DNA of 12,906 nucleotides from a virus (taxonomy: Duplodnaviria > Heunggongvirae > Uroviricota > Caudoviricetes). The notes under the pieces are model-generated. The model had not been told where the DNA came from and made no database searches. It was given only the letters and a program-made list of their open reading frames with translations. Below, piece after piece: positions 1 through 10,174 of this stretch. The stretch lies in IMG/VR virus record IMGVR_UViG_2541047938_000002, one strand, 5' to 3'. Position numbers and translations under genes: made by a program. How positions within the stretch are numbered: position 1 is the stretch's first letter; each line of letters opens with the position of its first letter.

Positions 1-1053
1 TTACGGGGTAATGCCAACCGCTGCCGCCACTTTGTCGCCACTTGGCAGCGTTGCCAGAGGATTGAAACGGAGCGCCGTTTCCAGATGATCCGGTGCCAGA
101 TGTGCGTAACGCATAGTCATTTTTATATCGTGGTGTCCGAGAATTTTTTGTAAGGCCAGAATGTTTCCACCCGACATCATGAAGTGCGCCGCAAACGTAT
201 GGCGCAGAACGTGTGTGAGTTGACCGCGAGGGAGCACGATAGACGTTTTTTCCATCACGGATAAAAATTGAAAATAGCAGTCTGTGAAGAAATTGAACCC
301 ATCAAGCGCCATGATCTCTTCGTAAAGCTCTTTACTGATAGGGATGCTTCTGTTTTTCTTCCCCTTCGTTCTTACAAAGGTAATTCGGTATTTGGTCACC
401 TGTGAACGAGTAAGATTTACGGCTTCTCGCCAGCGTGCGCCTGTGCTTAAGCATATCTTAACTACCAGTGCCAGAATTGGGTCCTGACGTTTGCAATCAG
501 CCAGTAATTCAACAATCTGCTCATGGGTAAGCCATGCCATCTCTTTTTCTGCGATGGTGAATTTTCGCATGTTCTCCAGTGGGTTCGGATACGACCATTC
601 GCCCAGGCGGGATAGTTCGCTAAAAACACTACTTAGATAGCTTTGCTCCAGGTTAATGGTGACCGGGCTTGCTCCTTTCTTCCATTTCTCGCTGAAGTAG
701 ATCTCACCTGTCAGGCGTTTATCTCGATAGTGGGCAAACATTTTAGAGGTTAGATCAGTTGCAAGGGGATTGCCCAGAGCGTCAACCATCAGCAGCAATT
801 TGTCATAGACATGCTGCCCAGCAGTCAGTGATTTACCATGTAGTTTGAACCATAGCTCAACCACGTCTTTCAGTGTTCGACGATCCACTGATTCACCTAG
901 CCAGGGCTTTGCTTCGGTTTCTTCCATCGTGTGACGCTCAAAAGCCAGTGCTTCGCCTTTGGTGGCGAATTGTTTACGCACACGACGCCCACTACGTCCG
1001 GCGGGGTAACATTCGCAAAGCCATTTTCCTGTGGTGAGTTTTCGTACAGCCAT
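1..1053 (-). CDS. int: Tyrosine integrase, P2/186 family (350 aa)
   Basis: Track ORF 1..1131(-). Best start is ATG 1053-1051, preceded by GGAGGG (1067-1062); the upstream 26 codons of the track ORF have no support. Tyrosine-recombinase signatures are present (GARWREA, LRHTFAAHF, MTMRYAHL) and the N-terminus MAVRKLTTGKW resembles P2 Int. The stop codon is bases 3-1, so the CDS ends at the window edge. Confidence 0.9.
   Translation of the reverse strand: MAVRKLTTGKWLCECYPAGRSGRRVRKQFATKGEALAFERHTMEETEAKPWLGESVDRRTLKDVVELWFKLHGKSLTAGQHVYDKLLLMVDALGNPLATDLTSKMFAHYRDKRLTGEIYFSEKWKKGASPVTINLEQSYLSSVFSELSRLGEWSYPNPLENMRKFTIAEKEMAWLTHEQIVELLADCKRQDPILALVVKICLSTGARWREAVNLTRSQVTKYRITFVRTKGKKNRSIPISKELYEEIMALDGFNFFTDCYFQFLSVMEKTSIVLPRGQLTHVLRHTFAAHFMMSGGNILALQKILGHHDIKMTMRYAHLAPDHLETALRFNPLATLPSGDKVAAAVGITP
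19..40. repeat. Candidate attL core (left copy of direct repeat CGCTGCCGCCAYTTTGTCGCCA)
   Basis: 22-bp stretch inside the 3' end of int, identical at 21/22 positions to 10052-10073 immediately after the ogr stop (C at 30 versus T at 10063). The positions match the P2 ogr-attP-int topology. Confidence 0.55.
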
Positions 1054-1078
1054 AAAAAATGCCCTCCAATAGAGAGCA

Positions 1079-1106
1079 TTTTTACTGTATGTATAACCAG
1101 TGTCAA
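1079..1106 (-). promoter_or_regulatory. Candidate sigma70 promoter for int with an overlapping LexA-like SOS box
   Basis: On the minus strand: -35 TTGACA (1106-1101), 16-bp spacer, -10 TAAAAA (1084-1079), then the int RBS and ATG about 25 bp downstream. The plus-strand 20-mer TACTGTATGTATAACCAGTG (1083-1102) fits CTG-N10-CAG with an AT-rich spacer and sits in the promoter spacer. Confidence 0.4.
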
Positions 1107-1241
1107 TGTATGAAATCCTGCGACCATACATCTCACTGAAGCCATAATGAAGTAGGCTATTCTTTTTGCTATGTGATCATGTAACTTTTGCGGTTAACCT
1201 GTGGCTCATTTTTATTTTAGGCGCAGATATAAAAGCAAAAG

Positions 1242-1433
1242 TTATCGTGAGTTTTTAGTACAGATTTTTTTGGATTTACTAATAGTTCCATCATTGCAAA
1301 CGAATTTGCCATCAGAGGTACAGTGAGAAACACCTCCCTTTTTCCCTGAGCAGGGATAATTTCTAGCATAGGTAGCTAGTGGGTTTAATAACAAAGAACA
1401 TGACAAAACCACAAAAAATACCTTACCAAGCAT
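1242..1433 (-). CDS. Small secreted, cysteine-containing basic protein (63 aa), hypothetical; possible lysogenic-conversion moron
   Basis: ATG 1433-1431 with SD GGGAGG 5 nt upstream, starting 18 nt after the cI stop. N-terminal signal-peptide-like segment [23 protein letters not shown]; predicted mature part about 40 aa with 4 Cys and many Lys. AT-rich by eye. Confidence 0.55.
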
Positions 1434-1448
1434 AATTTCCTCCCGGTA

Positions 1449-2018
1449 CTATTTAACATACTTGACTGTTAAACTTATAATTTTACCAATTATTTCAATG
1501 TCTTCTATCTTACATTCAAAGGCTCTGTTTCCACCCTCGACGAAGATTCTTCCACCGGGTAAACGAGTAATGTCACGGATCGTTATTTCGCCATCAATAC
1601 TTATTACCCATTTACCATCACGTATATCATCAAATTCCTTATCACAAATAAATTCAGAATTATTATCTGTGATTACAAAAAGATTCTTGAATGCCGACGG
1701 TAGAAATTCTCTATCGAAAATATAAAAACCGTCTTCACACAAGGCCCCATCAGATAATACATATTTAGCAACTTCCATAGTATTTGTATTACCTGAAGTT
1801 TGCTTTGAACCATGCCCGGTTGTGAGCCAATTAAGCGAGGTGCCTGTTTCAAGGGCGCACTGGATTACCCATTCTGCTGGGAATGAGTCACGCATGTAGC
1901 GTGTGGCGAGTGTACTTTTAGAGATTCCTAAATGATCGCACAACGCCTGTCGAGTCTTGAATCCATAAGCTTCTACCATGCGCTCTATGGCGCCTCGTCC
2001 GCCTTTCTCCAAATTCAT
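1449..2018 (-). CDS. cI: CI immunity repressor, phage 186 type (189 aa)
   Basis: Track ORF 1449..2024(-); preferred start ATG 2018-2016 with GGAG 5 nt upstream. N-terminal HTH-like region (GFKTRQALCDHLGISKSTLATRYMR) and overall resemblance to 186 CI. Divergent from the apl-cII operon, as in 186. Confidence 0.85.
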   Translation of the reverse strand: MNLEKGGRGAIERMVEAYGFKTRQALCDHLGISKSTLATRYMRDSFPAEWVIQCALETGTSLNWLTTGHGSKQTSGNTNTMEVAKYVLSDGALCEDGFYIFDREFLPSAFKNLFVITDNNSEFICDKEFDDIRDGKWVISIDGEITIRDITRLPGGRIFVEGGNRAFECKIEDIEIIGKIISLTVKYVK

Positions 2019-2029
2019 GGTCACTCCAA

Positions 2030-2083
2030 GTGAACTTTTATCTTGACGATTTCACCGTGCGATCGTATGTTTATGGTGTTCAC
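2030..2083 (+). promoter_or_regulatory. Candidate early rightward promoter (pR-like) flanked by an inverted repeat, possible CI operator half-sites
   Basis: -35 TTGACG (2043-2048), 17-bp spacer, -10 TATGTT (2066-2071) upstream of apl. GTGAAC (2030-2035) and GTTCAC (2078-2083) form an inverted repeat bracketing the promoter. Operator assignment is inference. Confidence 0.35.
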
Positions 2084-2143
2084 AAAATACAAACGATCCG
2101 TATTCGTCCTGATTAATCATCATTAAACGAGGAATGTTGCATC

Positions 2144-2365
2144 ATGAGACCTAACATTTCAATCACTCTTACCACGCCTCATGTGACTATTGAACGCTAT
2201 AGCGAGCTGACAGGGCTATCCATCGATACCATCAATGACATGTTGGCTGATGGACGCCTTATCCGTCACCGTCTGCGCAAAGATAAAAAACGCGAAAAAG
2301 TGATGATCAACATAGCAGCAATGACCGTTGATGCGCTTTCAGAATGCAATCTAAACCTTAATTAG
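2144..2365 (+). CDS. apl: Apl/Cox-family excisionase and transcriptional regulator (73 aa)
   Basis: First gene of the rightward operon, divergent from cI. HTH-like segment [25 protein letters not shown]; GAGG about 11 nt upstream of the ATG. Assigned by position and size. Confidence 0.6.
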
Positions 2366-2397
2366 TTCGATTCTGAAATACATCAGAGGCATTGACC

Positions 2398-2907
2398 ATG
2401 TTTGATTACCAAGTTTCCAAACATCCACATTTTGATGAAGCCTGTCGTGCATTTGCACTGCGCCACAATCTGGTGCAACTGGCAGAACGTGCAGGCATGA
2501 ATGTGCAGATTCTGCGGAACAAGCTGAACCCAGCTCAGCCTCATTTATTAACCGCACCAGAAATCTGGCTGCTTACCGATCTGACTGAAGATTCAACGCT
2601 GGTAGATGGTTTTCTGGCACAGATTCATTGTCTGCCATGTGTACCGATTAATGAGGTGGCAAAAGAGAAACTGCCACATTACGTCATGAGTGCAACCGCA
2701 GAGATCGGGCGTGTTGCTGCAGGTGCGGTGTCTGGCGATGTAAAAACCTGTGCCGGTCGTCGTGATGCTATCAGCAGCATTAACTCTGTAACACGACTGA
2801 TGGCGCTGGCGGCTGTTTCATTGCAGGCCCGTTTACAGGCTAATCCTGCGATGGCGAGTGCAGTTGATACCGTGACTGGCCTCGGTGCTTCATTTGGTTT
2901 GCTGTGA
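2398..2907 (+). CDS. cII: CII lysogeny-establishment activator, 186 type (169 aa)
   Basis: Track ORF 2392..2907; ATG 2398 with AGAGG 8 nt upstream. [19 protein letters not shown]... closely resembles 186 CII as I recall it. Confidence 0.85.
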
Positions 2908-2914
2908 GGTGCTT

Positions 2915-3115
2915 ATGCTGACGAAAGAACCATCATTTGCATCGCTGCTGGTTAAACAAAGCCCGGCAATGCATTACGGTCACGGCTGGATCATGGGGGA
3001 GGATGGTAAACGCTGGCATCCGTGCCGTTCACAAGATGAATTGCTGGCAGAACTATCTACGAAAAAACGGGGGAACAAATGGCTATTGAAGGCACTGCGG
3101 CGACTGTTCCATTAA
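2915..3115 (+). CDS. Hypothetical small early protein (66 aa)
   Basis: ATG 2915 with GAGG 5 nt upstream, overlapping the cII stop. Sits where 186 carries small early genes; no family recognised from sequence. Confidence 0.45.
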   Translation: MLTKEPSFASLLVKQSPAMHYGHGWIMGEDGKRWHPCRSQDELLAELSTKKRGNKWLLKALRRLFH

Positions 3116-3420
3116 GCCCCGGTGAACGCCTGAATGGACTTAATCACATTGCGGAGTTAAGGGCGAAAGTTTTTGGCCTGAATATTGAGTCAGAGCTTGA
3201 GCGGTTTATTAAAGATATGCGTGATTCACGGGATATTAATAGCGAACAAAATAAACGGGCACTGGCTGCCATATTCTTTATGGCAAAAATTCCAGCTGAA
3301 CGTCATAGCATCAGCATTAATGAGCTGACCACTGACGAAAAGCGGGAGTTGATTAAAGCAATGAATCATTTTCGTGCAGTGGTGAGCTTATTTCCCAGAC
3401 GGCTAACCATGCCGAATTAA
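3079..3420 (+). CDS. Hypothetical early protein (113 aa)
   Basis: ATG 3079 with GGGGGA SD; overlaps the preceding ORF by 37 nt in another frame. No family recognised. Confidence 0.5.
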   Translation: MAIEGTAATVPLSPGERLNGLNHIAELRAKVFGLNIESELERFIKDMRDSRDINSEQNKRALAAIFFMAKIPAERHSISINELTTDEKRELIKAMNHFRAVVSLFPRRLTMPN

Positions 3421-3487
3421 CCAACTAATGAAATTAATGGCGTAAACCCGCCGGGCATCCCTTTATCTAAATTCAGGAGAATTGATT

Positions 3488-3721
3488 ATGCGTAATATTG
3501 AAACCCTCTCGACCAAAACCGGACCGGATGACGCAGGGCTTAATATTTTACTGACAGAGGCTCGTCTGGAAGAACGCCGGGCAAGGGCTGAAGCAATGGC
3601 AGCTCGCCTTGATAGCCTGGCGTGTCATATCACATCCCGCCAGCTAACCCACGTCGAAGCGGCAGAACTGCTTCGTGTGACTGCTGAAGCAATCCAGAAC
3701 GAAGCGCAGGAGATCCACTAA
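3488..3721 (+). CDS. Hypothetical early protein (77 aa)
   Basis: ATG 3488 with AGGAGA 7 nt upstream (the track begins at TTG 3482). Its stop overlaps the next start (TAATG). Confidence 0.55.
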   Translation: MRNIETLSTKTGPDDAGLNILLTEARLEERRARAEAMAARLDSLACHITSRQLTHVEAAELLRVTAEAIQNEAQEIH

Positions 3722-3948
3722 TGGCTGATGCAATGGATCTCGTACAGCAGCGCGTTGAAGAAGAACGCCAACGCCATATCCGTGCTGCCCGTGCCAAAAC
3801 GCCGGGCGTGTCCCGCGTGCTTTGCATTGAGTGTGAAGCGCCAATTCCGCCAGCACGCCGCCGTGCCATTCCGGGTGTGCAGCTTTGCATTACCTGTCAG
3901 GAAATCGCAGAGCTGAAAGGCAAACATTACAACGGAGGTGCTGTATGA
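3721..3948 (+). CDS. TraR/DksA-family C4 zinc-finger protein (75 aa)
   Basis: C-x2-C-x17-C-x2-C motif (CIECEAPIPPARRRAIPGVQLCITC); start and stop coupled to neighbouring genes. Common in P2-family early operons. Confidence 0.75.
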   Translation: MADAMDLVQQRVEEERQRHIRAARAKTPGVSRVLCIECEAPIPPARRRAIPGVQLCITCQEIAELKGKHYNGGAV

Positions 3949-4802
3949 GCACCATCCTGAAATGGGCGGGAAATAAAACTGCCATAATGTCCGAACTGAA
4001 AAAACATCTTCCTGCTGGCCCGCGACTGGTTGAACCTTTCGCGGGTTCCTGTGCTGTGATGATGGAGACGGATTATCCCAGCTATCTGGTTGCGGATATT
4101 AATCCTGATTTAATCAACCTCTATAAAAAGGTTGCCGCTGATTGTGAATCGTTTATATCTCGCGCCAGAGTTTTATTTGAGAACGCAAACAGGGAGGTGG
4201 CTTATTACAACATAAGGCAGGAGTTTAATTACTCAACTGAAATTACTGATTTCATGAAAGCGGTATATTTCCTGTATCTCAATCGTCACGGTTACCGTGG
4301 TTTATGTCGCTATAACAAGAGCGGGCATTTCAACATTCCCTACGGTAATTATAAAAATCCGTATTTCCCTGAAAAAGAAATTCGCGCATTTGCAGAAAAG
4401 GCCCAGCGAGCAACGTTTATCTGCGCCAGCTTTGATGAAACGCTGGCGATGTTGAAGGCGGGGGATGTGGTGTATTGCGATCCGCCGTATGACGGTACGT
4501 TTTCCGGCTATCACACTGACGGCTTCACTGAAGATGACCAGTATCACCTGGCATCTGTTCTTGAACATCGGTCATCAGAAGGACATCCGGTCATTGTTTC
4601 TAACAGTGACACATCCCTGATCCGTTCGCTGTATCGCAATTTTACTCACCACTACATCAAGGCAAAACGCAGCATCGGTGTGGCAGCTGGCGAGGGTAAA
4701 TCAGCAACAGAAATCATTGCTGTTTCCGGGCCGCGCTGCTGGGTGGGATTTGATTATTCGCGTGGCGTGGATAGTTCTGCCGTGTACGGAGTACGTGCAT
4801 GA
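3945..4802 (+). CDS. dam: DNA adenine methyltransferase, Dam family (285 aa)
   Basis: Track ORF starts at 3885; preferred ATG 3945 ([11 protein letters not shown]) with GGAGG 6 nt upstream. Has the SAM-binding LKWAGNK motif and the catalytic DPPY motif; strong resemblance to E. coli Dam. Confidence 0.9.
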
Positions 4803-6223
4803 GTCATGCCGATATGAACAACTGCTGCGGCTTTAACGAAGCTGCCGCATCGTTCTCATGGAACAGCTCGAAAAAGGCCATTAACCCTTATCTGGACCCG
4901 GTGGAAGTTGCGCCGGTTTCTACGCTTTCAAACCTGATCACTCTGTACGCTGCCGATAACGAGCAGGAACAGCTGCGCCGTGAGGCGCTGAGTGATCAGG
5001 TCTGGGAGCGTTATTTCTTTAATGAATCCCGTGATCCTGTCCAGCGCGAAATGGAACAGGATAAGCTCATTAGTCGGGCAAAGCTGGCGCATGAGCAGCA
5101 GCGTTTTAATCCGGATATGGTCATTCTGGCGGACGTCAACGCCCAGCCTTCCCATATCAGCAAGCCGCTGATGCAACGTATTGAATACTTCAGCAGCCTG
5201 GGCAGGCCAAAGGCTTATTCCCGCTATTTACGTGAGACGATTAAGCCATGTCTGGAACGACTGGAGCATGTACGCGACAGTCAGCTATCTGCATCTTTTC
5301 GCTTTATGGCAAGCCATGAAGGGCTGGACGGCCTGCTGATCCTGCCTGAAATGAGTCAGGATCAGGTGAAACGCCTGTCCACCCTGGTAGCTGCGCATAT
5401 GAGTATGTGCCTTGATGCCGCTTGTGGCGATTTGTATGCCACCGATGACGTTAAGCCAGAAGAAATCCGCAATACATGGGAAAGGGTGGCAGCGGAAACC
5501 CTGCGTCTGGATGTCATCCCGCCTGCGTTTGAGCAACTCCGTCGGAAAAGAAACCGCCGTAAACCCGTGCCCTATGAACTCATTCCGGGTTCGCTGGCGC
5601 GTATGTTGTGCGCCGACTGGTGGTATCGGAAATTATGGAAGATGCGTTGCGAATGGCGGGAAGAGCAGTTGCGTGCTGTCTGCCTTGTCAGCAAAAAAGC
5701 ATCTCCCTATGTCAGCTATGAAGCCGTGTTGCATAAACGTGAGCAGCGCCGTAAGTCGCTGGAGTTTTTCCGTTCTCATGAACTGGTGAACGAAGACGGC
5801 GACACGCTAGACATGGAGGATGTGGTAAACGCCAGCAGCAGCAACCCTGCGCATCGCCGCAATGAGATGATGGCCTGTGTTAAAGGTCTGGAGCTTATCG
5901 CGGAAATGCGCGGTGACTGCGCCGTTTTCTACACCATCACCTGTCCGTCACGTTTCCATTCCACGCTAAATAACGGCAGGCCCAACCCGACCTGGACAAA
6001 TGCGACGGTAAGACAAAGCAGCGATTATCTGGTCGGTATGTTTGCTGCATTTCGTAAGGCGATGCACAAAGCCGGGTTGCGCTGGTATGGCGTGCGGGTG
6101 TCAGTGTGGTGTTCATGGCACAAACCTACAGCCTTGAATGAAGGCTTTCCCCGCCTGCGGTTTGTGTGGTTGTCGGTACAAATACCGCGCATTGTTTCAC
6201 TGCCCCCATCACCGCAACCATAA
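4799..6223 (+). pseudogene. A: Replication initiation endonuclease A (P2 gpA / 186 A family), apparently truncated with a non-homologous tail
   Basis: ATG 4799 overlaps the dam stop (ATGA), GGAG upstream. Resembles the N-terminal ~430 aa of P2-family A (…ITCPSRFH…RWYGVRV). After about 6100 the frame runs 41 unrelated codons to a stop at 6223, and the HUH region I expect next (…EPHHDGT.HWH…) is absent. Confidence 0.65.
6105..6180 (+). promoter_or_regulatory. Late-promoter region with two TGT-N12-ACA (Ogr/Delta-type) activator boxes upstream of O
   Basis: TGT(6105-6107)-N12-ACA(6120-6122) and TGT(6163-6165)-N12-ACA(6178-6180). The second box is centred about 88 bp upstream of the O start codon, consistent with a -55 activator site for a start site near 6226. 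Confidence 0.45.
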
Positions 6224-6258
6224 GGCTCCAGTAAGTTTTTTCTAACGGAGCACGGCTC

Positions 6259-7086
6259 ATGACAGTGAAAGCAAAGCGTTTTCGCATCGGGGTGGAAGGT
6301 GCCACCACCGACGGACGCGAAATCCAGCGTGAATGGCTGGAACAGATGGCAGCCAGCTACAACCCGGCGGTGTATACCGCGCTGATTAACCTTGAGCACA
6401 TCAAGTCTTATCTGCCGGACAGCACCTTTAACCGCTACGGCAAGGTGACGGCGCTGTTTGCTGAAGAAATCACGGAAGGTCCGCTGGCAGGCAAGATGGC
6501 GCTGTATGCCGACGTTGAGCCAACGGAGTCCCTGGTGGAACTGGTGAAAAAAGGCCAGAAATTATTCACCTCTATGGAAGTCAGCCCGAAGTTCGCTGAT
6601 ACGGGCAAAGCCTACCTGGTCGGCCTGGCTGCTACTGATGACCCTGCCAGTCTGGGTACGGAAATGCTGACATTCAGCGCCAGTGCAGCCCATAACCCGC
6701 TGGCAAACCGCAAGCAGAATCCTGCCAATCTCTTTACCGCTGCAGAGGAAACGGTGATCGAACTGGAAGAAATCCAGGACGACAAACCGTCCCTGTTTGC
6801 CCGCGTCACGGCGCTGTTTACCAAAAAAGAGCAGTCCGATGACGCCCGGTTCTCTGATGTGCATAAGGCCGTGGAGCTGGTCGCCACTGAGCAGCAGAAC
6901 CTGAGTGCACGCACCGAAAAATCCCTGTCTGAGCAGGAAGAACGCCTGTCTGAGCTGGAGACTGCCCTGCAGGCACAGCAAACCGCCTTTAACGAACTGG
7001 TGGACAAGCTGAGTCATGAAGACAGTCGCCAGGACTACCGCCAGCGTGCAACAGGCGGTACCTGCATTTTCATAAATACTTTTTAG
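6259..7086 (+). CDS. O: Capsid scaffold protein gpO (275 aa), C-terminal ~9 residues replaced at a deletion junction
   Basis: ATG 6259 with GGAG 8 nt upstream. FRIGVEG…DGR…INLEH…SMEV.P.FA.TGK.YLVGLAATDDPASLGTE… resembles P2 gpO. Similarity is lost after …ATGG (about 7059) and the frame ends TCIFINTF. Confidence 0.8.
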   Translation: MTVKAKRFRIGVEGATTDGREIQREWLEQMAASYNPAVYTALINLEHIKSYLPDSTFNRYGKVTALFAEEITEGPLAGKMALYADVEPTESLVELVKKGQKLFTSMEVSPKFADTGKAYLVGLAATDDPASLGTEMLTFSASAAHNPLANRKQNPANLFTAAEETVIELEEIQDDKPSLFARVTALFTKKEQSDDARFSDVHKAVELVATEQQNLSARTEKSLSEQEERLSELETALQAQQTAFNELVDKLSHEDSRQDYRQRATGGTCIFINTF

Positions 7087-7295
7087 CTCATCAGCGTAGA
7101 ACGCATTTTCTTTTGCAGAATAAAACATATTAATCACCATCCAATCGCGAAAACTCTAAAGCCACCGTAGCCAGCACATGTAATTTGAGTTTTTGTCATA
7201 CCAGTGTAATACGTTCTACCAACAGCCAAATTATATGCAGTTGTAGAACTCAAATCAGCAGCCCCAGTTGATACATCACTAAATAACGGAATCAT
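7060..7295 (-). pseudogene. Remnant of a tail-fibre gene 3' end plus the 5' end of a tail-fibre assembly (Tfa) gene, inverted relative to the other late genes
   Basis: Minus-strand ORF 7295..7134 (…AGYGGFRVFAIGW*) whose TGA overlaps ATG 7140 of a second reading frame, MVINMFYSAKENAFYADELKSIYENAG, in the ATGGTGA arrangement typical of fibre/tfa pairs. That N-terminus matches the conserved start of Tfa proteins as I recall it. The frame becomes antisense O after about 26 codons. Confidence 0.5.
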
Positions 7296-8163
7296 GCACT
7301 CATTTGGGAATGCAATAGGGAAACCCATCACCGCATTTCTCGGTGGCGTGGTGGAAGGATTCAAAGCGGCGGCAGGTCCCATCAGTGCTGCATTCGAACC
7401 ACTTAAGCCTGTGTTTCAGTGGATTGGCGACAAAGTACAGGCGCTGTGGGGCTGGTTTACTGATCTGCTGACGCCCGTTAAGTCGACCTCTGCCGAACTG
7501 CAGAGTGCAGCGGCAATGGGGCGACGATTCGGGGAGGCACTGGCGGAAGGGCTGAATATGGTCATGCATCCGCTGGACTCCCTGAAATCCGGCGTTTCCT
7601 GGTTGCTGGAGAAGCTCGGCATTGTCAGTAAAGAGGCCGCAAAGGCAAAACTGCCGGAAAGCGTGACGCGTCAGCAACCTGCGACGGTGAATGCAGACGG
7701 TAAAGTGATGATGCCATTGGGTGGTTTTCCATCATGGGGATATGGCTTTGCGGGGATGTATGACAGCGGCGGGTATATCCCGCGCGGGCAGTTTGGCATC
7801 GTCGGTGAAAACGGGCCGGAAATTGTTAACGGCCCGGCAAATGTGACCAGCCGGAGAAATACCGCTGCACTGGCTGCCGTTGTTGCCGGAATGATGGGCG
7901 TTGCTGCCGCGCCTGCAGAGCTTCCACCGTTGCACCCTTTGGCACTTCCCGCGAAAGGCGGCGAAGCGATGGTGAGTCGTGCAGCCACTGTGCCGCCCGT
8001 TCAACGGATTGAGGCACCGATGCAGATCATCATTCAGACGCAGCCAGGACAAAGTGCGCAGGATATTGCGCGGGAGGTGGCCCGCCAGCTTGATGAACGT
8101 GAACGCAGGCTGAAAGCAAAAGCCAGGAGTAACTACAGCGATCAGGGGGGATACGACGCATGA
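7294..8163 (+). pseudogene. T: Tail tape-measure protein (gpT family), C-terminal ~289 aa only
   Basis: The frame opens at ATG 7294 exactly at the junction with the inverted fibre fragment. Contains GIVGENGPE and Gly/Ala-rich segments typical of P2-family tape-measure C-termini; these proteins are about 800 aa. Stop overlaps the U start (ATGA). Confidence 0.7.
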
Positions 8164-9832: not shown

Positions 9833-10051
9833 ATGATGATTTGCCCACTGTGTGGAAGTGCCGCCCATACTCGCAGCAGTTTTCAGGTATCTTCATTGAC
9901 CAAAGAGCGTTACAACCAGTGCCAGAACATTAACTGCAGCCATACTTTTGTTACCCATGAAACTTTTGTTCGTTCGATTGCAACGCCAAAAGAGTCAAAT
10001 CCGGTTCAGCCGCATCCAATGAAATCAGGACAGGTGGCGCTCTCTCTTTGA
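9833..10051 (+). CDS. ogr: Ogr/Delta-family zinc-finger late transcription activator (72 aa)
   Basis: Track ORF 9800..10051; preferred ATG 9833 (MMICPLCGSAAH…) giving 72 aa, as in P2 Ogr. Zinc-finger motif C-x2-C-x22-C-x4-C; GGGGAGA about 10 nt upstream. Confidence 0.9.
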   Translation: MMICPLCGSAAHTRSSFQVSSLTKERYNQCQNINCSHTFVTHETFVRSIATPKESNPVQPHPMKSGQVALSL

Positions 10052-10073: not shown

Positions 10074-10127
10074 TCGTTAAAAAACAGTGTTTCTAACATC
10101 ATGATTTTAAACAGCTTAAATTTCAGG

Positions 10128-10174
10128 CAACAAAAAACCCATCAACCTTGAACCGAAATGGCGGGGTTGATGGG
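10128..10174 (-). terminator. Rho-independent terminator downstream of ybjL (host side of attR)
   Basis: 10-bp GC-rich stem (10138-10147 pairs with 10165-10174), 17-nt loop, then TTTTTTGTTG on the minus strand (plus A-run 10132-10137); 113 nt after the ybjL stop. Confidence 0.55.

Follow-up and report, generated by a model that had tools for sequence, protein, structure and literature searches.

In the textbook picture of the P2/186 phage family the integrase gene int lies on the repressor transcript, and SOS input reaches the prophage via the Tum antirepressor only, a pathway established for 186. An earlier reading of the DNA analysed here, made from its letters alone (the sequence-only reading), had set its proposal against this picture, and its statements on P2 and 186 were correct: cI and int of 186 overlap in one operon, and the sole LexA site of that phage lies at p95-tum. 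The P2 C-int and 186 cI-int operons hold homologous integrases at the same attL-end position as in the element described here, but int is read there from the repressor promoter, and 186 int lacks a dedicated promoter and a dedicated LexA site.

Direct control of an integrase by LexA has been described in integrons, whose integrase promoter carries a LexA box (Guerin et al. 2009; Cambray et al. 2011, summarised in PMC3323433). The locus reported here would likewise place the promoter of a tyrosine recombinase under direct LexA repression and let DNA damage license recombination. The integron is nevertheless an unrelated element whose recombinase is of a different subfamily and works with no excisionase partner, and its promoter has no phage activator site. 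The resemblance is one of convergent logic only, not of homology. In lambda, CII activates integrase expression (PMC7708051). Lambda pI is a dedicated int promoter under a lysogeny-establishment factor, as our promoter may also be, but lambda CII and 186 CII are unrelated proteins with different sites, and pI has no LexA operator.

Here we analysed a window of 12,906 nucleotides of viral DNA (IMG/VR record IMGVR_UViG_2541047938_000002), in which int has a predicted promoter of its own, P_int, with a predicted LexA operator. Two promoters of 186 are its nearest counterparts. At p95-tum a LexA operator likewise overlaps a phage promoter, in the same phage family and under the same host signal; it controls the antirepressor, whereas the site in the window would control the integrase itself. 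Intact relatives of the element have both modules, tum-type and P_int. At 186 pE an inverted repeat of the same type, ATGT(T/A)TG-N12/13-CA(A/T)ACAT, has its proximal half-site next to the -35. However, pE has a poor -35 and lacks a LexA box, and the gene it drives is cI (followed by int in 186), whereas P_int has a consensus -35 and a LexA operator and would drive int alone. In the literature searched we found no published account of P2/186-like phages in which a stand-alone int promoter is under LexA or CII control.

Results

The prophage remnant and its missing tum region

A decayed 186-type (P2-family) prophage is inserted between rcdA and ybjL, and the window covers its left part. The landmarks are as follows.

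1-1053, minus strand: int, an intact tyrosine integrase gene, 350 aa (Pfam Int_N and Phage_integrase)
1242-1433, minus strand: small Cys-rich protein gene (orf63), 63 aa, cargo between cI and int (ORF list)
1449-2018, minus strand: cI, 186-type immunity repressor (Pfam Phage_CI_repr and Phage_CI_C; annotation of the relative L001)
2144-2365, plus strand: apl/cox-like gene, first of the lytic operon (position; homolog annotated Cox in phage 813R9)
6093-6100, no strand: junction of an 8.2-kb deletion (blastn of the window against L001; the two segments overlap by 8 bp)
10124-10142, no strand: attR, where the prophage remnant ends on the right (same 19-mer as the annotated attR of Klebsiella phage 4LV2017)

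The domains of Int, its homology to the 186 and P2 integrases (56% and about 39% identity, respectively) and the location of its gene next to att identify it as a P2/186-family tyrosine integrase. It is 100% identical to Int of Escherichia phage vB_EcoM-813R9, and its gene is annotated with the same extent in L001. The gene starts with ATG at 1053-1051, at the end of the element opposite attR and next to rcdA, and is parted from cI by the cargo gene and about 190 bp of non-coding DNA. The apl/cox-like product had no Pfam match.

Alignment with L001 placed window positions 1-6100 on 13102-19201 and 6093-7060 on 27397-28364. The intervening deletion truncated gene A at its 3′ side and eliminated the tum-like SOS operon, LexA boxes included, along with cargo, portal and terminase. 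It had been noted that no tum-like gene is visible in this element. This holds for the window, where gene A is truncated at the deletion junction and the LexA matrix found no second site, but the reason is that the deletion removed the region. A second LexA site follows the replication gene in L001, 4LV2017 and ESSI2_ev129. In L001 the LexA sites (20407-20441) precede a homolog of TumB, 75% identical to PSP3 TumB; the Tum module, in 186 and PSP3 a DinI-like antirepressor gene under a LexA-controlled promoter on the far side of gene A, is present in L001 and 4LV2017, and ESSI2_ev129 has its LexA site at the equivalent place. The 62-aa ORF that precedes the L001 TumB homolog was considered as a TumA homolog and rejected, as it had no BLAST similarity to PSP3 TumA or 186 Tum. 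Since intact relatives carry the tumB homolog behind the second LexA box, direct control of int would add to the Tum pathway rather than replace it.

A predicted LexA operator within the int promoter

The DNA immediately upstream of int holds the following elements.

1101-1106, minus strand: -35 hexamer TTGACA of P_int (promoter scan; kept in relatives)
1083-1102, no strand: predicted LexA operator (SOS box), TACTGTATGTATAACCAGTG on the plus strand, inside the int promoter spacer
1078-1084, minus strand: -10 region, TAAAAA (N16) or AAAAAT (N17) (sequence and promoter scan)
1062-1067, minus strand: int Shine-Dalgarno GGAGGG (sequence; 8-nt spacing to the ATG at 1053)

Both hexamers of the proposed TTGACA-N16-TAAAAA promoter were present on the minus strand at the spacing claimed: TTGACA (1106-1101) is separated by 16 nt from TAAAAA (1084-1079) and by 17 nt from AAAAAT (1083-1078). 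The promoter scan listed the N17 version, with 10 of 12 matches. The scan was rejected as evidence on its own, as it gave no excess over shuffles (4 matches in the window versus 4.2 expected), and we relied instead on conservation of the hexamers across lineages. In relatives the -35 varies as TTGAC(A/C), TTTACA, TTGAAT or TTGATT, and TAAAAT, TTAAAT or TATAAA occupies the place of the -10. The promoter had been put about 25 bp upstream of the int ribosome-binding site. It does lie upstream, but the distance was loosely stated, as 11 nt separate the end of the -10 from the Shine-Dalgarno and the start of the -35 is 39 nt away from it. We predict that int has its own sigma-70 promoter within ~80 bp before the gene.

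The proposed CTG-N10-CAG pattern was found in the SOS box, with its core at 1085-1100. The box overlaps the -35 and the -10 by 2 nt each, and the int ATG is 29 nt downstream of it. We take a LexA operator to be a 16-bp imperfect palindrome, CTGT-N8-ACAG, with an A/T-rich centre, within a 20-mer near TACTGTATATATATACAGTA. The box agrees with this 20-mer at 16 of 20 positions; its left half, CTGT, is perfect and its right half is CCAG, a right half also found in uvrB, lexA box 2, recN box 1 and dinB.

The loose CTG-N10-CAG pattern proved uninformative. Because it occurs 11 times in the window (3.3 expected), the other ten matches being GC-rich coding sequence, the full-matrix score was used as evidence instead. 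Matrix scoring, which had been suggested as a check, gave the box a heterology-index-type score of 3.36, better than 23 of 26 known E. coli sites. These reference sites ranged from 1.3 to 9.1 on the heterology matrix, which was rebuilt from published E. coli sites and gives approximate absolute scores. The runner-up in the window scored 14.3, and none of 300 Markov-1 random windows attained 3.36, the lowest among them reaching 7.9. The annotated p95 site of 186 and the site upstream of PSP3 tumA served as controls: the sole match over the 30.6-kb 186 genome was the p95 site, which tests detection as well as specificity, and the PSP3 segment scanned held one strong site, directly upstream of tumA. 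Palindrome match, a score in the range of proven operators and overlap with the predicted core promoter together confirmed that the int promoter carries a near-consensus, predicted LexA operator.

Conservation of the box and layout of int

The proposal that a LexA operator in a stand-alone promoter subjects int to direct SOS control gained comparative support. In 40 of 71 Int-homologous loci, against a background rate of 0.0013 per equivalent window, the box was flanked by conserved -35 and -10 hexamers and lay at a distance of 27-34 nt from the int ATG. It recurred in more than 100 viral contigs. The same geometry of box and promoter was seen in 41 aligned relatives. Box-bearing loci span three Int clades, with Int identity down to about 55% and unalignable flanks, and come from Escherichia, Klebsiella, Raoultella, Citrobacter, Enterobacter, Serratia, Yersinia, Rahnella, Pantoea, Pectobacterium, Brenneria, Mixta and other genera. 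The box occurs in 80 distinct sequence versions in which CTG and CAG are fixed and the centre is variable; some relatives have weaker boxes, with LexA scores of 8-9.6.

A scan for the composite promoter pattern, not based on Int, returned 120 IMG/VR loci. An Int homolog lay 10-60 nt downstream in 108; a further seven had the same promoter with int cut or disrupted, and five were chance matches. About one complete E. coli genome in five matches the sequence around the site, the site is identical in E. coli B/BL21-type strains, and the arrangement is also found in isolated, sequenced Klebsiella phages and many other Enterobacterales.

Presence of the box followed the layout of int. Box-bearing loci have a gap of 65-270 nt to the upstream ORF, and the upstream genes are variable; the apparent exception, L026, has a 30-nt gap to a short, mechanically called ORF. 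In 25 of the 31 box-less loci int lies 0-27 nt from the upstream ORF, as in 186 and PSP3 (the remaining six have gaps of 57-302 nt). Operonic layout and composite promoter were mutually exclusive among the 71 loci. Homology to heteroimmune phages stops at 1111-1113, just beyond the -35 and inside the repeat upstream of it, and the promoter therefore travels with int. The module is also present where int follows ogr instead of cI.

A CII-type site next to the -35

Upstream of the operator lies a repeat that recurs at the pE of the element.

1106-1131, minus strand: CII-type activator site, inverted repeat ATGTATG-N12-CATACAT (motif match to pE and to the 186 CII site)
2398-2424, no strand: CII binding site of the element's own pE, ATGTTTG-N13-CAAACAT (sequence type and position match the 186 CII site)
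2398-2907, plus strand: cII, presumed activator at pE and P_int (69% identity to 186 CII)

Identification of these sites rests on the RefSeq annotation of 186, with a CII site at 23435-23462, together with half-site positions near -38 and -58. The window pE site likewise lies at the start of cII, whose product aligns with 186 CII over all 169 aa (E 1e-94). The pattern ATGTWT-N13-16-AWACAT had exactly two matches in the window, P_int and pE, versus 0.02 expected; its single match in 186 was the annotated CII site, and L001, 4LV2017 and ESSI2_ev129 matched only at pE and P_int. At one mismatch or fewer it was present in 36 of the 40 box-bearing Int loci and in 0.4% of background windows, whereas none of the 31 box-less Int loci had it even at two mismatches or fewer.

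The repeat adjoins the -35, the last T of CATACAT being the first T of TTGACA; in 186 pE, CAAACAT is followed by one nucleotide and then TTGCAT. By prediction the half-sites at P_int are centred near -57 and -38, the proximal one abutting the -35. Each differs from pE by one symmetric T-to-A change, and the spacer is 12 rather than 13 nt; many relatives have the exact pE half-sites with N13 at P_int. The distal half-site is kept even where the sequence between the half-sites is unrelated between relatives. Among viral contigs with 4 kb or more of upstream sequence and a layout other than ogr-int, 59 of 63 had a cII homolog and four had no detectable one; this count leaves out 19 ogr-int contigs, in which cII would lie beyond the fetched DNA.

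P_int thus resembles pE in its inverted half-sites about two turns apart, the proximal one next to the -35, and in the presence of a cognate cII in the element. It differs in lacking a weak, activator-dependent core: because its -35 is a perfect TTGACA, we file it as a promoter that carries a putative CII-type site and not as a strictly CII-dependent one. The repeat was also considered as a terminator of the preceding gene and rejected, as it is AT-rich with no T-run, and Pantoea, Mixta and Winslowiella loci have a separate canonical terminator before it.

A hairpin in the int leader

The leader of int is predicted to fold.

1055-1083, minus strand: leader hairpin AAAAAUGCUCUCU / GGAGGGCAUUUUU (ViennaRNA fold, -14.5 kcal/mol)

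Five consecutive U close the stem, and one further U stands before the AUG; this U-run lies at 1054-1059. The int Shine-Dalgarno lies within the 3′ arm of the predicted fold, so the hairpin would sequester the int ribosome-binding site. The terminator scan did not list this hairpin, although ViennaRNA folds it. Among the distinct leaders of relatives, the folding z was below -2 for 31 of 35 (median -5.1), and the stems of separate lineages vary in sequence in a manner consistent with compensatory change. The hairpin and the CII-type site are two features that the sequence-only reading did not contain, and with them the promoter would respond to several inputs.

Discussion

The most likely mechanism, in which we have fair confidence, is that int transcription is LexA-repressed, CII-boosted and uncoupled from cI. 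P_int would be ordered as the CII-type repeat, the -35, the LexA operator in the spacer, the -10, the hairpin and the ATG. In the undamaged lysogen, LexA bound between -35 and -10 would occlude RNA polymerase and keep int silent, as the quality, position and conservation of the operator suggest. DNA damage would cause LexA to cleave itself and P_int to open; in intact relatives the LexA-controlled tum operon would open too. Tum would then inactivate CI, the lytic promoter would fire to give Apl (the excisionase) and CII, and Int and Apl would excise the prophage; we infer this coupling of the Tum pathway to P_int. Bound to the repeat abutting the -35, as at pE, CII would boost P_int after infection and again after induction. 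This boost would supply Int without CI, a step suggested by what the motif is, by where it lies and by its strict co-occurrence with the SOS box. More speculatively, RNAs that read through from cI and the cargo gene are probably terminated or kept silent by the hairpin; a transcript started at P_int would have its 5′ end within the 5′ arm of this hairpin or beyond it.

Parts of this mechanism fit less easily. A consensus TTGACA is unlike typical activator-dependent promoters, and CII may add little. With a LexA dimer in the spacer, transcription stimulated by CII should be blocked too. Such a block sits ill with the supply of Int at lysogenisation of an undamaged cell, most of all in ogr-int layouts, where an intrinsic terminator precedes P_int.

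These points bear on the alternative that LexA is the sole relevant regulator, P_int a plain SOS promoter and the upstream repeat a site for IHF or another protein, of host or phage, or a conserved recombination boundary. The consensus -35 needs no activator, the half-sites and spacer of the window each depart slightly from pE, and homology to heteroimmune phages ends within the repeat. The IHF consensus is WATCAANNNNTTR, and the Rahnella version of the repeat, AATCAAACATTTA, fits it; the window version fits it poorly, and an IHF site upstream of the -35 was given up in favour of the CII-site match. We nevertheless consider this alternative unlikely, given that a motif with 12 specified bases singles out pE and P_int so specifically, that the distal half-site is kept amid unrelated sequence and that the module is nearly always in cII-bearing phages where the layout permits a check. 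Considerably less probable is that the LexA-bound site acts mainly as a roadblock or insulator, with the hairpin, against read-through from cI and cargo, int being transcribed from upstream promoters once LexA is cleaved. That view could draw on the chance-level promoter scan, on the terminator-like hairpin and U-run directly before the ATG and on the fact that int follows cI and orf63 on one strand and that no strong terminator was detected in the interval. However, different lineages keep the hexamers at a fixed spacing on either side of the box, and the module is also found behind ogr. In addition, the CII-like site of the Pantoea, Mixta and Winslowiella loci has a canonical GC-rich terminator, complete with T-run, in front of it, and P_int must therefore be the source of the int transcript there.

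It is very improbable that the palindrome is a chance match, a non-functional relic or a site for a phage protein (CI, Apl or Int) rather than for LexA. The loose pattern is indeed common in the window and the element is a defective remnant, but the full-matrix score was out of reach of chance, and 80 versions of the box retain CTG and CAG around a free centre. A CI, Apl or Int site was rejected on the conservation of the box across heteroimmune phages: it is kept although the identity of CI to that of the window spans 31-100%, including the 313-aa CI of 4LV2017. Such conservation across different immunity repressors argues for a host factor common to all Enterobacterales.

A more elaborate form of the preferred LexA-CII mechanism is conceivable, and we offer it only tentatively. 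P_int could be a compact three-input device in which LexA cleavage and CII are OR-type triggers, a hairpin straddling the start sorts transcripts by origin and Int is decoupled from the repressor, across a large group of P2/186-like phages. CII bound 3 bp from the operator would displace or out-compete LexA. Read-through RNAs from cI and cargo would fold the hairpin and be terminated or untranslatable, whereas RNAs started at P_int would lack the 5′ arm and be translated. If this held, Int would be made only at integration and at SOS-induced excision, and cargo or defence genes could insert freely between cI and int.

Taken together, our comparisons indicate that in a large, widespread subgroup of P2/186-like phages int has a promoter of its own that is wired directly to LexA of the host and, apparently, to CII of the phage as well. 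If real, such control could explain the separation of int from cI by variable cargo or defence genes and would supply Int during induction without raising CI. In 186 with stabilised CII, raised CI is known to be a problem (PMC7708051). Phage integrases would also join those of integrons on the short list of DNA damage-licensed recombinases, with a bearing on antibiotic-induced prophage mobility. In the remnant itself, SOS should still switch int on; because the tum region and most late genes are deleted, this would not lead to phage production, and the int control circuit is probably vestigial here.

The cargo gene that parts int from cI in this element is annotated as hypothetical or as 'YdcA family' in E. 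coli genomes. Its 63-aa product had no Pfam match, and its N-terminus is, in our reading of the sequence, hydrophobic and signal-peptide-like.

A predicted LexA operator lies within the int promoter

Inspection of the sequence ahead of int bore out the sequence-only reading, which had described a LexA-type SOS box inside a TTGACA-N16-TAAAAA promoter preceding the int ribosome-binding site. This predicted stand-alone promoter (P_int) is laid out as follows:

1106-1101, minus strand: -35 hexamer TTGACA (sequence, promoter scan)
1083-1102, plus-strand reading TACTGTATGTATAACCAGTG: predicted LexA box
1084-1079, minus strand: -10 hexamer TAAAAA, after a 16-nt spacer; N17 with AAAAAT is an alternative
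Between -10 and GGAGGG, minus strand: tgctctctatt
1067-1062, minus strand: Shine-Dalgarno GGAGGG, followed by cattttttt
1053, minus strand: ATG opening a 350-aa tyrosine integrase

The product carries Int_N and Phage_integrase domains (Pfam) and matches Int of Escherichia phage vB_EcoM-813R9 at 100% identity and 186 Int at 56%.

The box also held up when scored with a LexA heterology-index matrix, in which low values are better. The matrix was rebuilt on a reference set of 26 E. coli LexA sites, and its absolute values are approximate; on this scale the 20-mer scored 3.36, better than 23/26 reference sites. The runner-up in the 12.9-kb window scored 14.3, and the best score over 300 Markov-1 random windows was 7.9. 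Applied as a control to the 30.6-kb phage 186 genome, the matrix returned exactly one site, the annotated LexA site of p95, and in an 11.1-kb PSP3 segment it returned one strong site, directly upstream of tumA.

Two simpler criteria were uninformative. The loose CTG-N10-CAG pattern occurs 11 times in the window against 3.3 expected from dinucleotide shuffles, and the promoter scan gave 4 matches against 4.2 in shuffles. The CTG-N10-CAG matches other than the int site are GC-rich, lie nearly all inside long ORFs and have poor LexA scores; codon bias is the likely cause of the excess.

The box is conserved ahead of int across enterobacterial genera

Region 900-1500 was matched in 1108/5426 complete E. 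coli genomes. Megablast against phages showed that homology of the int module stops at 1111-1113, just beyond the -35 hexamer, in heteroimmune Klebsiella and Escherichia phages. To survey more distant relatives, we took one genome per GTDB species and retrieved 77 loci with Int homologs, 71 of which had a usable int start. A LexA-like site (score below 10) was present 27-34 nt 5′ of the int ATG in 40/71 loci; the background rate in equivalent windows is 0.0013 per window. Box-bearing genera include Escherichia, Klebsiella, Raoultella, Citrobacter, Enterobacter, Kluyvera, Serratia, Yersinia, Rahnella, Ewingella, Pantoea, Pectobacterium, Brenneria, Mixta, Winslowiella and Acerihabitans. Int is as little as about 55% identical among these loci, and the flanks otherwise do not align; the most conserved alignment columns are CTG, ATACAG and both promoter hexamers. 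In a neighbor-joining tree of Int, box-bearing loci fall into three clades and box-less lineages are scattered among them.

A CII-type site abuts the -35 hexamer

Anchored alignment of the relatives revealed a conserved inverted repeat 5′ of the -35 hexamer, a predicted CII-type site reading ATGTATG-N12-CATACAT on the minus strand (1106-1131). Its proximal half-site overlaps TTGACA by one base, ending in the T with which the hexamer begins. At the 186 establishment promoter pE, the annotated CII binding site (23435-23462) is GATGTTTG-N13-CAAACAT, and the same sequence stands at the apl/cII junction of the window (2398-2424). With transcription predicted to start near 1071, the half-sites at P_int are centred at about -38 and -57, in agreement with the half-site positions at pE.

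The pattern ATGTWT-N13-16-AWACAT proved highly specific, with exactly two occurrences in the window (P_int and pE; 0.02 expected), one in phage 186 (the annotated CII site), and two each, at pE and P_int, in Klebsiella phage 4LV2017, Escherichia phage ESSI2_ev129 and L001, an intact related prophage in E. coli 13E0767. Among the 40 box-bearing loci the motif has no mismatch in 23, one in 13, two in 3 and three in 1, whereas none of the 31 box-less loci has it within two mismatches; 0.4% of background windows have it with at most one.

We then scanned IMG/VR with the composite pattern ATGTWT-N13-16-AWACATT-N3-5-CTG-N10-CAG, without using Int, and recovered at least 120 loci (at least 80 distinct sequences). 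Among the 120 matches listed, 108 have an ORF homologous to the window Int (44-100% identity) 10-60 nt downstream, 7 have this promoter ahead of a truncated or disrupted int, and 5 are chance matches. Where the listed contigs extend at least 4 kb upstream, 59 have a cII homolog and the cI-(cargo)-int layout, 19 are ogr-int, where the position of cII falls beyond the retrieved DNA, and 4 have neither.

The composite promoter and operonic int are mutually exclusive in the loci surveyed

Across the 71 loci, a box with stand-alone int and an operonic layout exclude each other. In 25/31 box-less loci int begins 0-27 nt past the upstream ORF, typically cI (gaps are 57-302 nt in the other 6/31). PSP3 has a layout close to this, and in 186 cI and int overlap. 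In contrast, box-bearing loci have a gap of 65-270 nt before int, with one apparent exception (L026, 30 nt, to a short mechanically called ORF), and the genes upstream are unrelated: a 558-aa ATPase, a KAP NTPase, small ORFs or ogr. Pantoea, Mixta and Winslowiella have a canonical terminator ahead of the promoter region, which leaves P_int as the sole possible source of int transcripts there.

The cI-int interval (window 1132-1448; relatives L003 4136-5812, L088 2737-4068 and L002 1851-2900) is a variable cargo slot. The window carries a 63-aa Cys-rich protein ("YdcA family" in some annotations) with a signal-peptide-like N-terminus; relatives carry a 558-aa "chromosome segregation ATPase", a KAP-family NTPase or a 349-aa hypothetical protein. 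The slot resembles a moron or defence hotspot, perhaps made possible by the stand-alone int promoter. In Rahnella, Pantoea, Pectobacterium, Mixta and Winslowiella prophages (L028-L040, L092, L094 and others), int lies directly 3′ of ogr on the same strand, with the same composite promoter, often past a clear ogr terminator. This orientation is opposite to that in P2 and 186, whose ogr and int converge on attP.

The window holds a prophage remnant that has lost its tum region

The window comprises the left 10.1 kb of a 186-type P2-family prophage and flanking host DNA:

1-1053, minus strand: int, tyrosine integrase
1242-1433, minus strand: ORF, 63-aa cargo gene
1449-2018, minus strand: cI, 186-type
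2144-2365, plus strand: apl/cox-like gene
2398-2907, plus strand: cII, 69% identity to 186 CII
After cII: fil, DUF2732, traR/dksA-like and dam genes
After these: truncated gene A, gpO fragment, gpT 3′ end, gpU, gpD
9833-10051: ogr, Ogr/Delta-type zinc-finger gene (MMICPLCGSAAHTRSS...), intact, right end of the remnant
10124-10142: attR core, intact, identical to the annotated attR of phage 4LV2017
After attR: ybjL, host gene

Two internal deletions define the prophage as a remnant. Window 1-6100 aligns to L001 13102-19201 and window 6093-7060 to L001 27397-28364; the first deletion is thus 8.2 kb, with 8 bp shared at the junction (6093-6100), and fuses truncated gene A to DNA just 5′ of gpO. 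The second, of about 14 kb at about 7060-7319, removed late genes and fused gpO to the 3′ end of the tape-measure gene.

Per L001, the 8.2-kb deletion took with it two overlapping LexA boxes (20407-20441), a 62-aa ORF and a DinI-like gene with 75% identity to PSP3 TumB. The earlier remark that no tum-like gene is visible is therefore true of the window, but the absence reflects decay, not design, since the deletion removed that region. The two overlapping boxes (TACTGTAAATATAAACAGTGGTTATGCATACAGTA) lie in the promoter of the tum-like operon (L001 20403-20441); colicin promoters have the same tandem arrangement.

TumB homologs lie 6.6-8.6 kb upstream in 24 of the listed IMG/VR contigs, mostly longer ones. 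Exactly two strong LexA sites are present in each of the complete phages 4LV2017 and ESSI2_ev129, at P_int and just after the replication gene. In the operonic-int phages 186, YenM_201.16 and ST13-OXA48phi12.1, and in the PSP3 segment scanned, LexA sites are confined to the region that follows the replication gene.

A model for dual control of int

In the best-supported model, P_int would be a dedicated int promoter that host LexA represses and phage CII boosts. From the sequence evidence, LexA very probably binds the predicted box, int is likely to be under SOS control, and we lean towards a CII input at P_int. In intact phages, P_int and the tum operon would both open on DNA damage; with CI inactivated by Tum, the lytic promoter would then yield Apl and CII. 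Int and Apl would thus be co-present for excision, without additional CI synthesis. In a newly infected cell, CII would increase the supply of Int for integration. With a LexA dimer 3 bp away in undamaged cells, CII might compete with or displace LexA (an OR gate), or both signals might be required (an AND gate). In the remnant, SOS should still induce int, with nothing productive following without Tum or late genes.

The component parts, namely LexA operators, the 186 CII site and the Tum pathway, are known. Integron recombinase promoters are directly LexA-controlled (PMC3323433), and the lambda int promoter is activated by CII (PMC7708051). We found neither the combination of LexA and CII at a P2/186-family int nor its exclusivity with operonic int in the literature searched, P2-family phylogeny papers included. 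The arrangement is widespread and would be moderately surprising to specialists of this family. It is also immediately testable: E. coli B/BL21 carries the identical site and is a convenient test bed. The B-strain derivative E. coli NEBExpress (L090) likewise has a remnant of this prophage, with an identical LexA box and CII-like site before int (1641-1745) and with cII and gene A annotated as partial pseudogenes.

A conserved hairpin in the int leader

The RNA from the -10 hexamer to the ATG folds into a hairpin (AAAAAUGCUCUCU/GGAGGGCAUUUUU; 1083-1055, minus strand; -14.5 kcal/mol) whose 3′ arm contains the Shine-Dalgarno. At the end of the stem is a five-U run, and one further U precedes AUG. 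Among distinct leaders of relatives, 31/35 fold with z < -2 (median z -5.1), and stem sequences differ between lineages, which fits selection for structure. Since the predicted start lies inside or after the 5′ arm, transcripts from P_int would lack that arm, and we speculate that the hairpin acts on read-through transcripts alone, which it could terminate or translationally silence. In one IMG/VR contig (L171) P_int is otherwise identical, and unrelated sequence (TAATGCCAGTCAGTTAAGCAACTGACTGG) follows ...CTGGAG, suggesting an insertion or rearrangement within the int leader.
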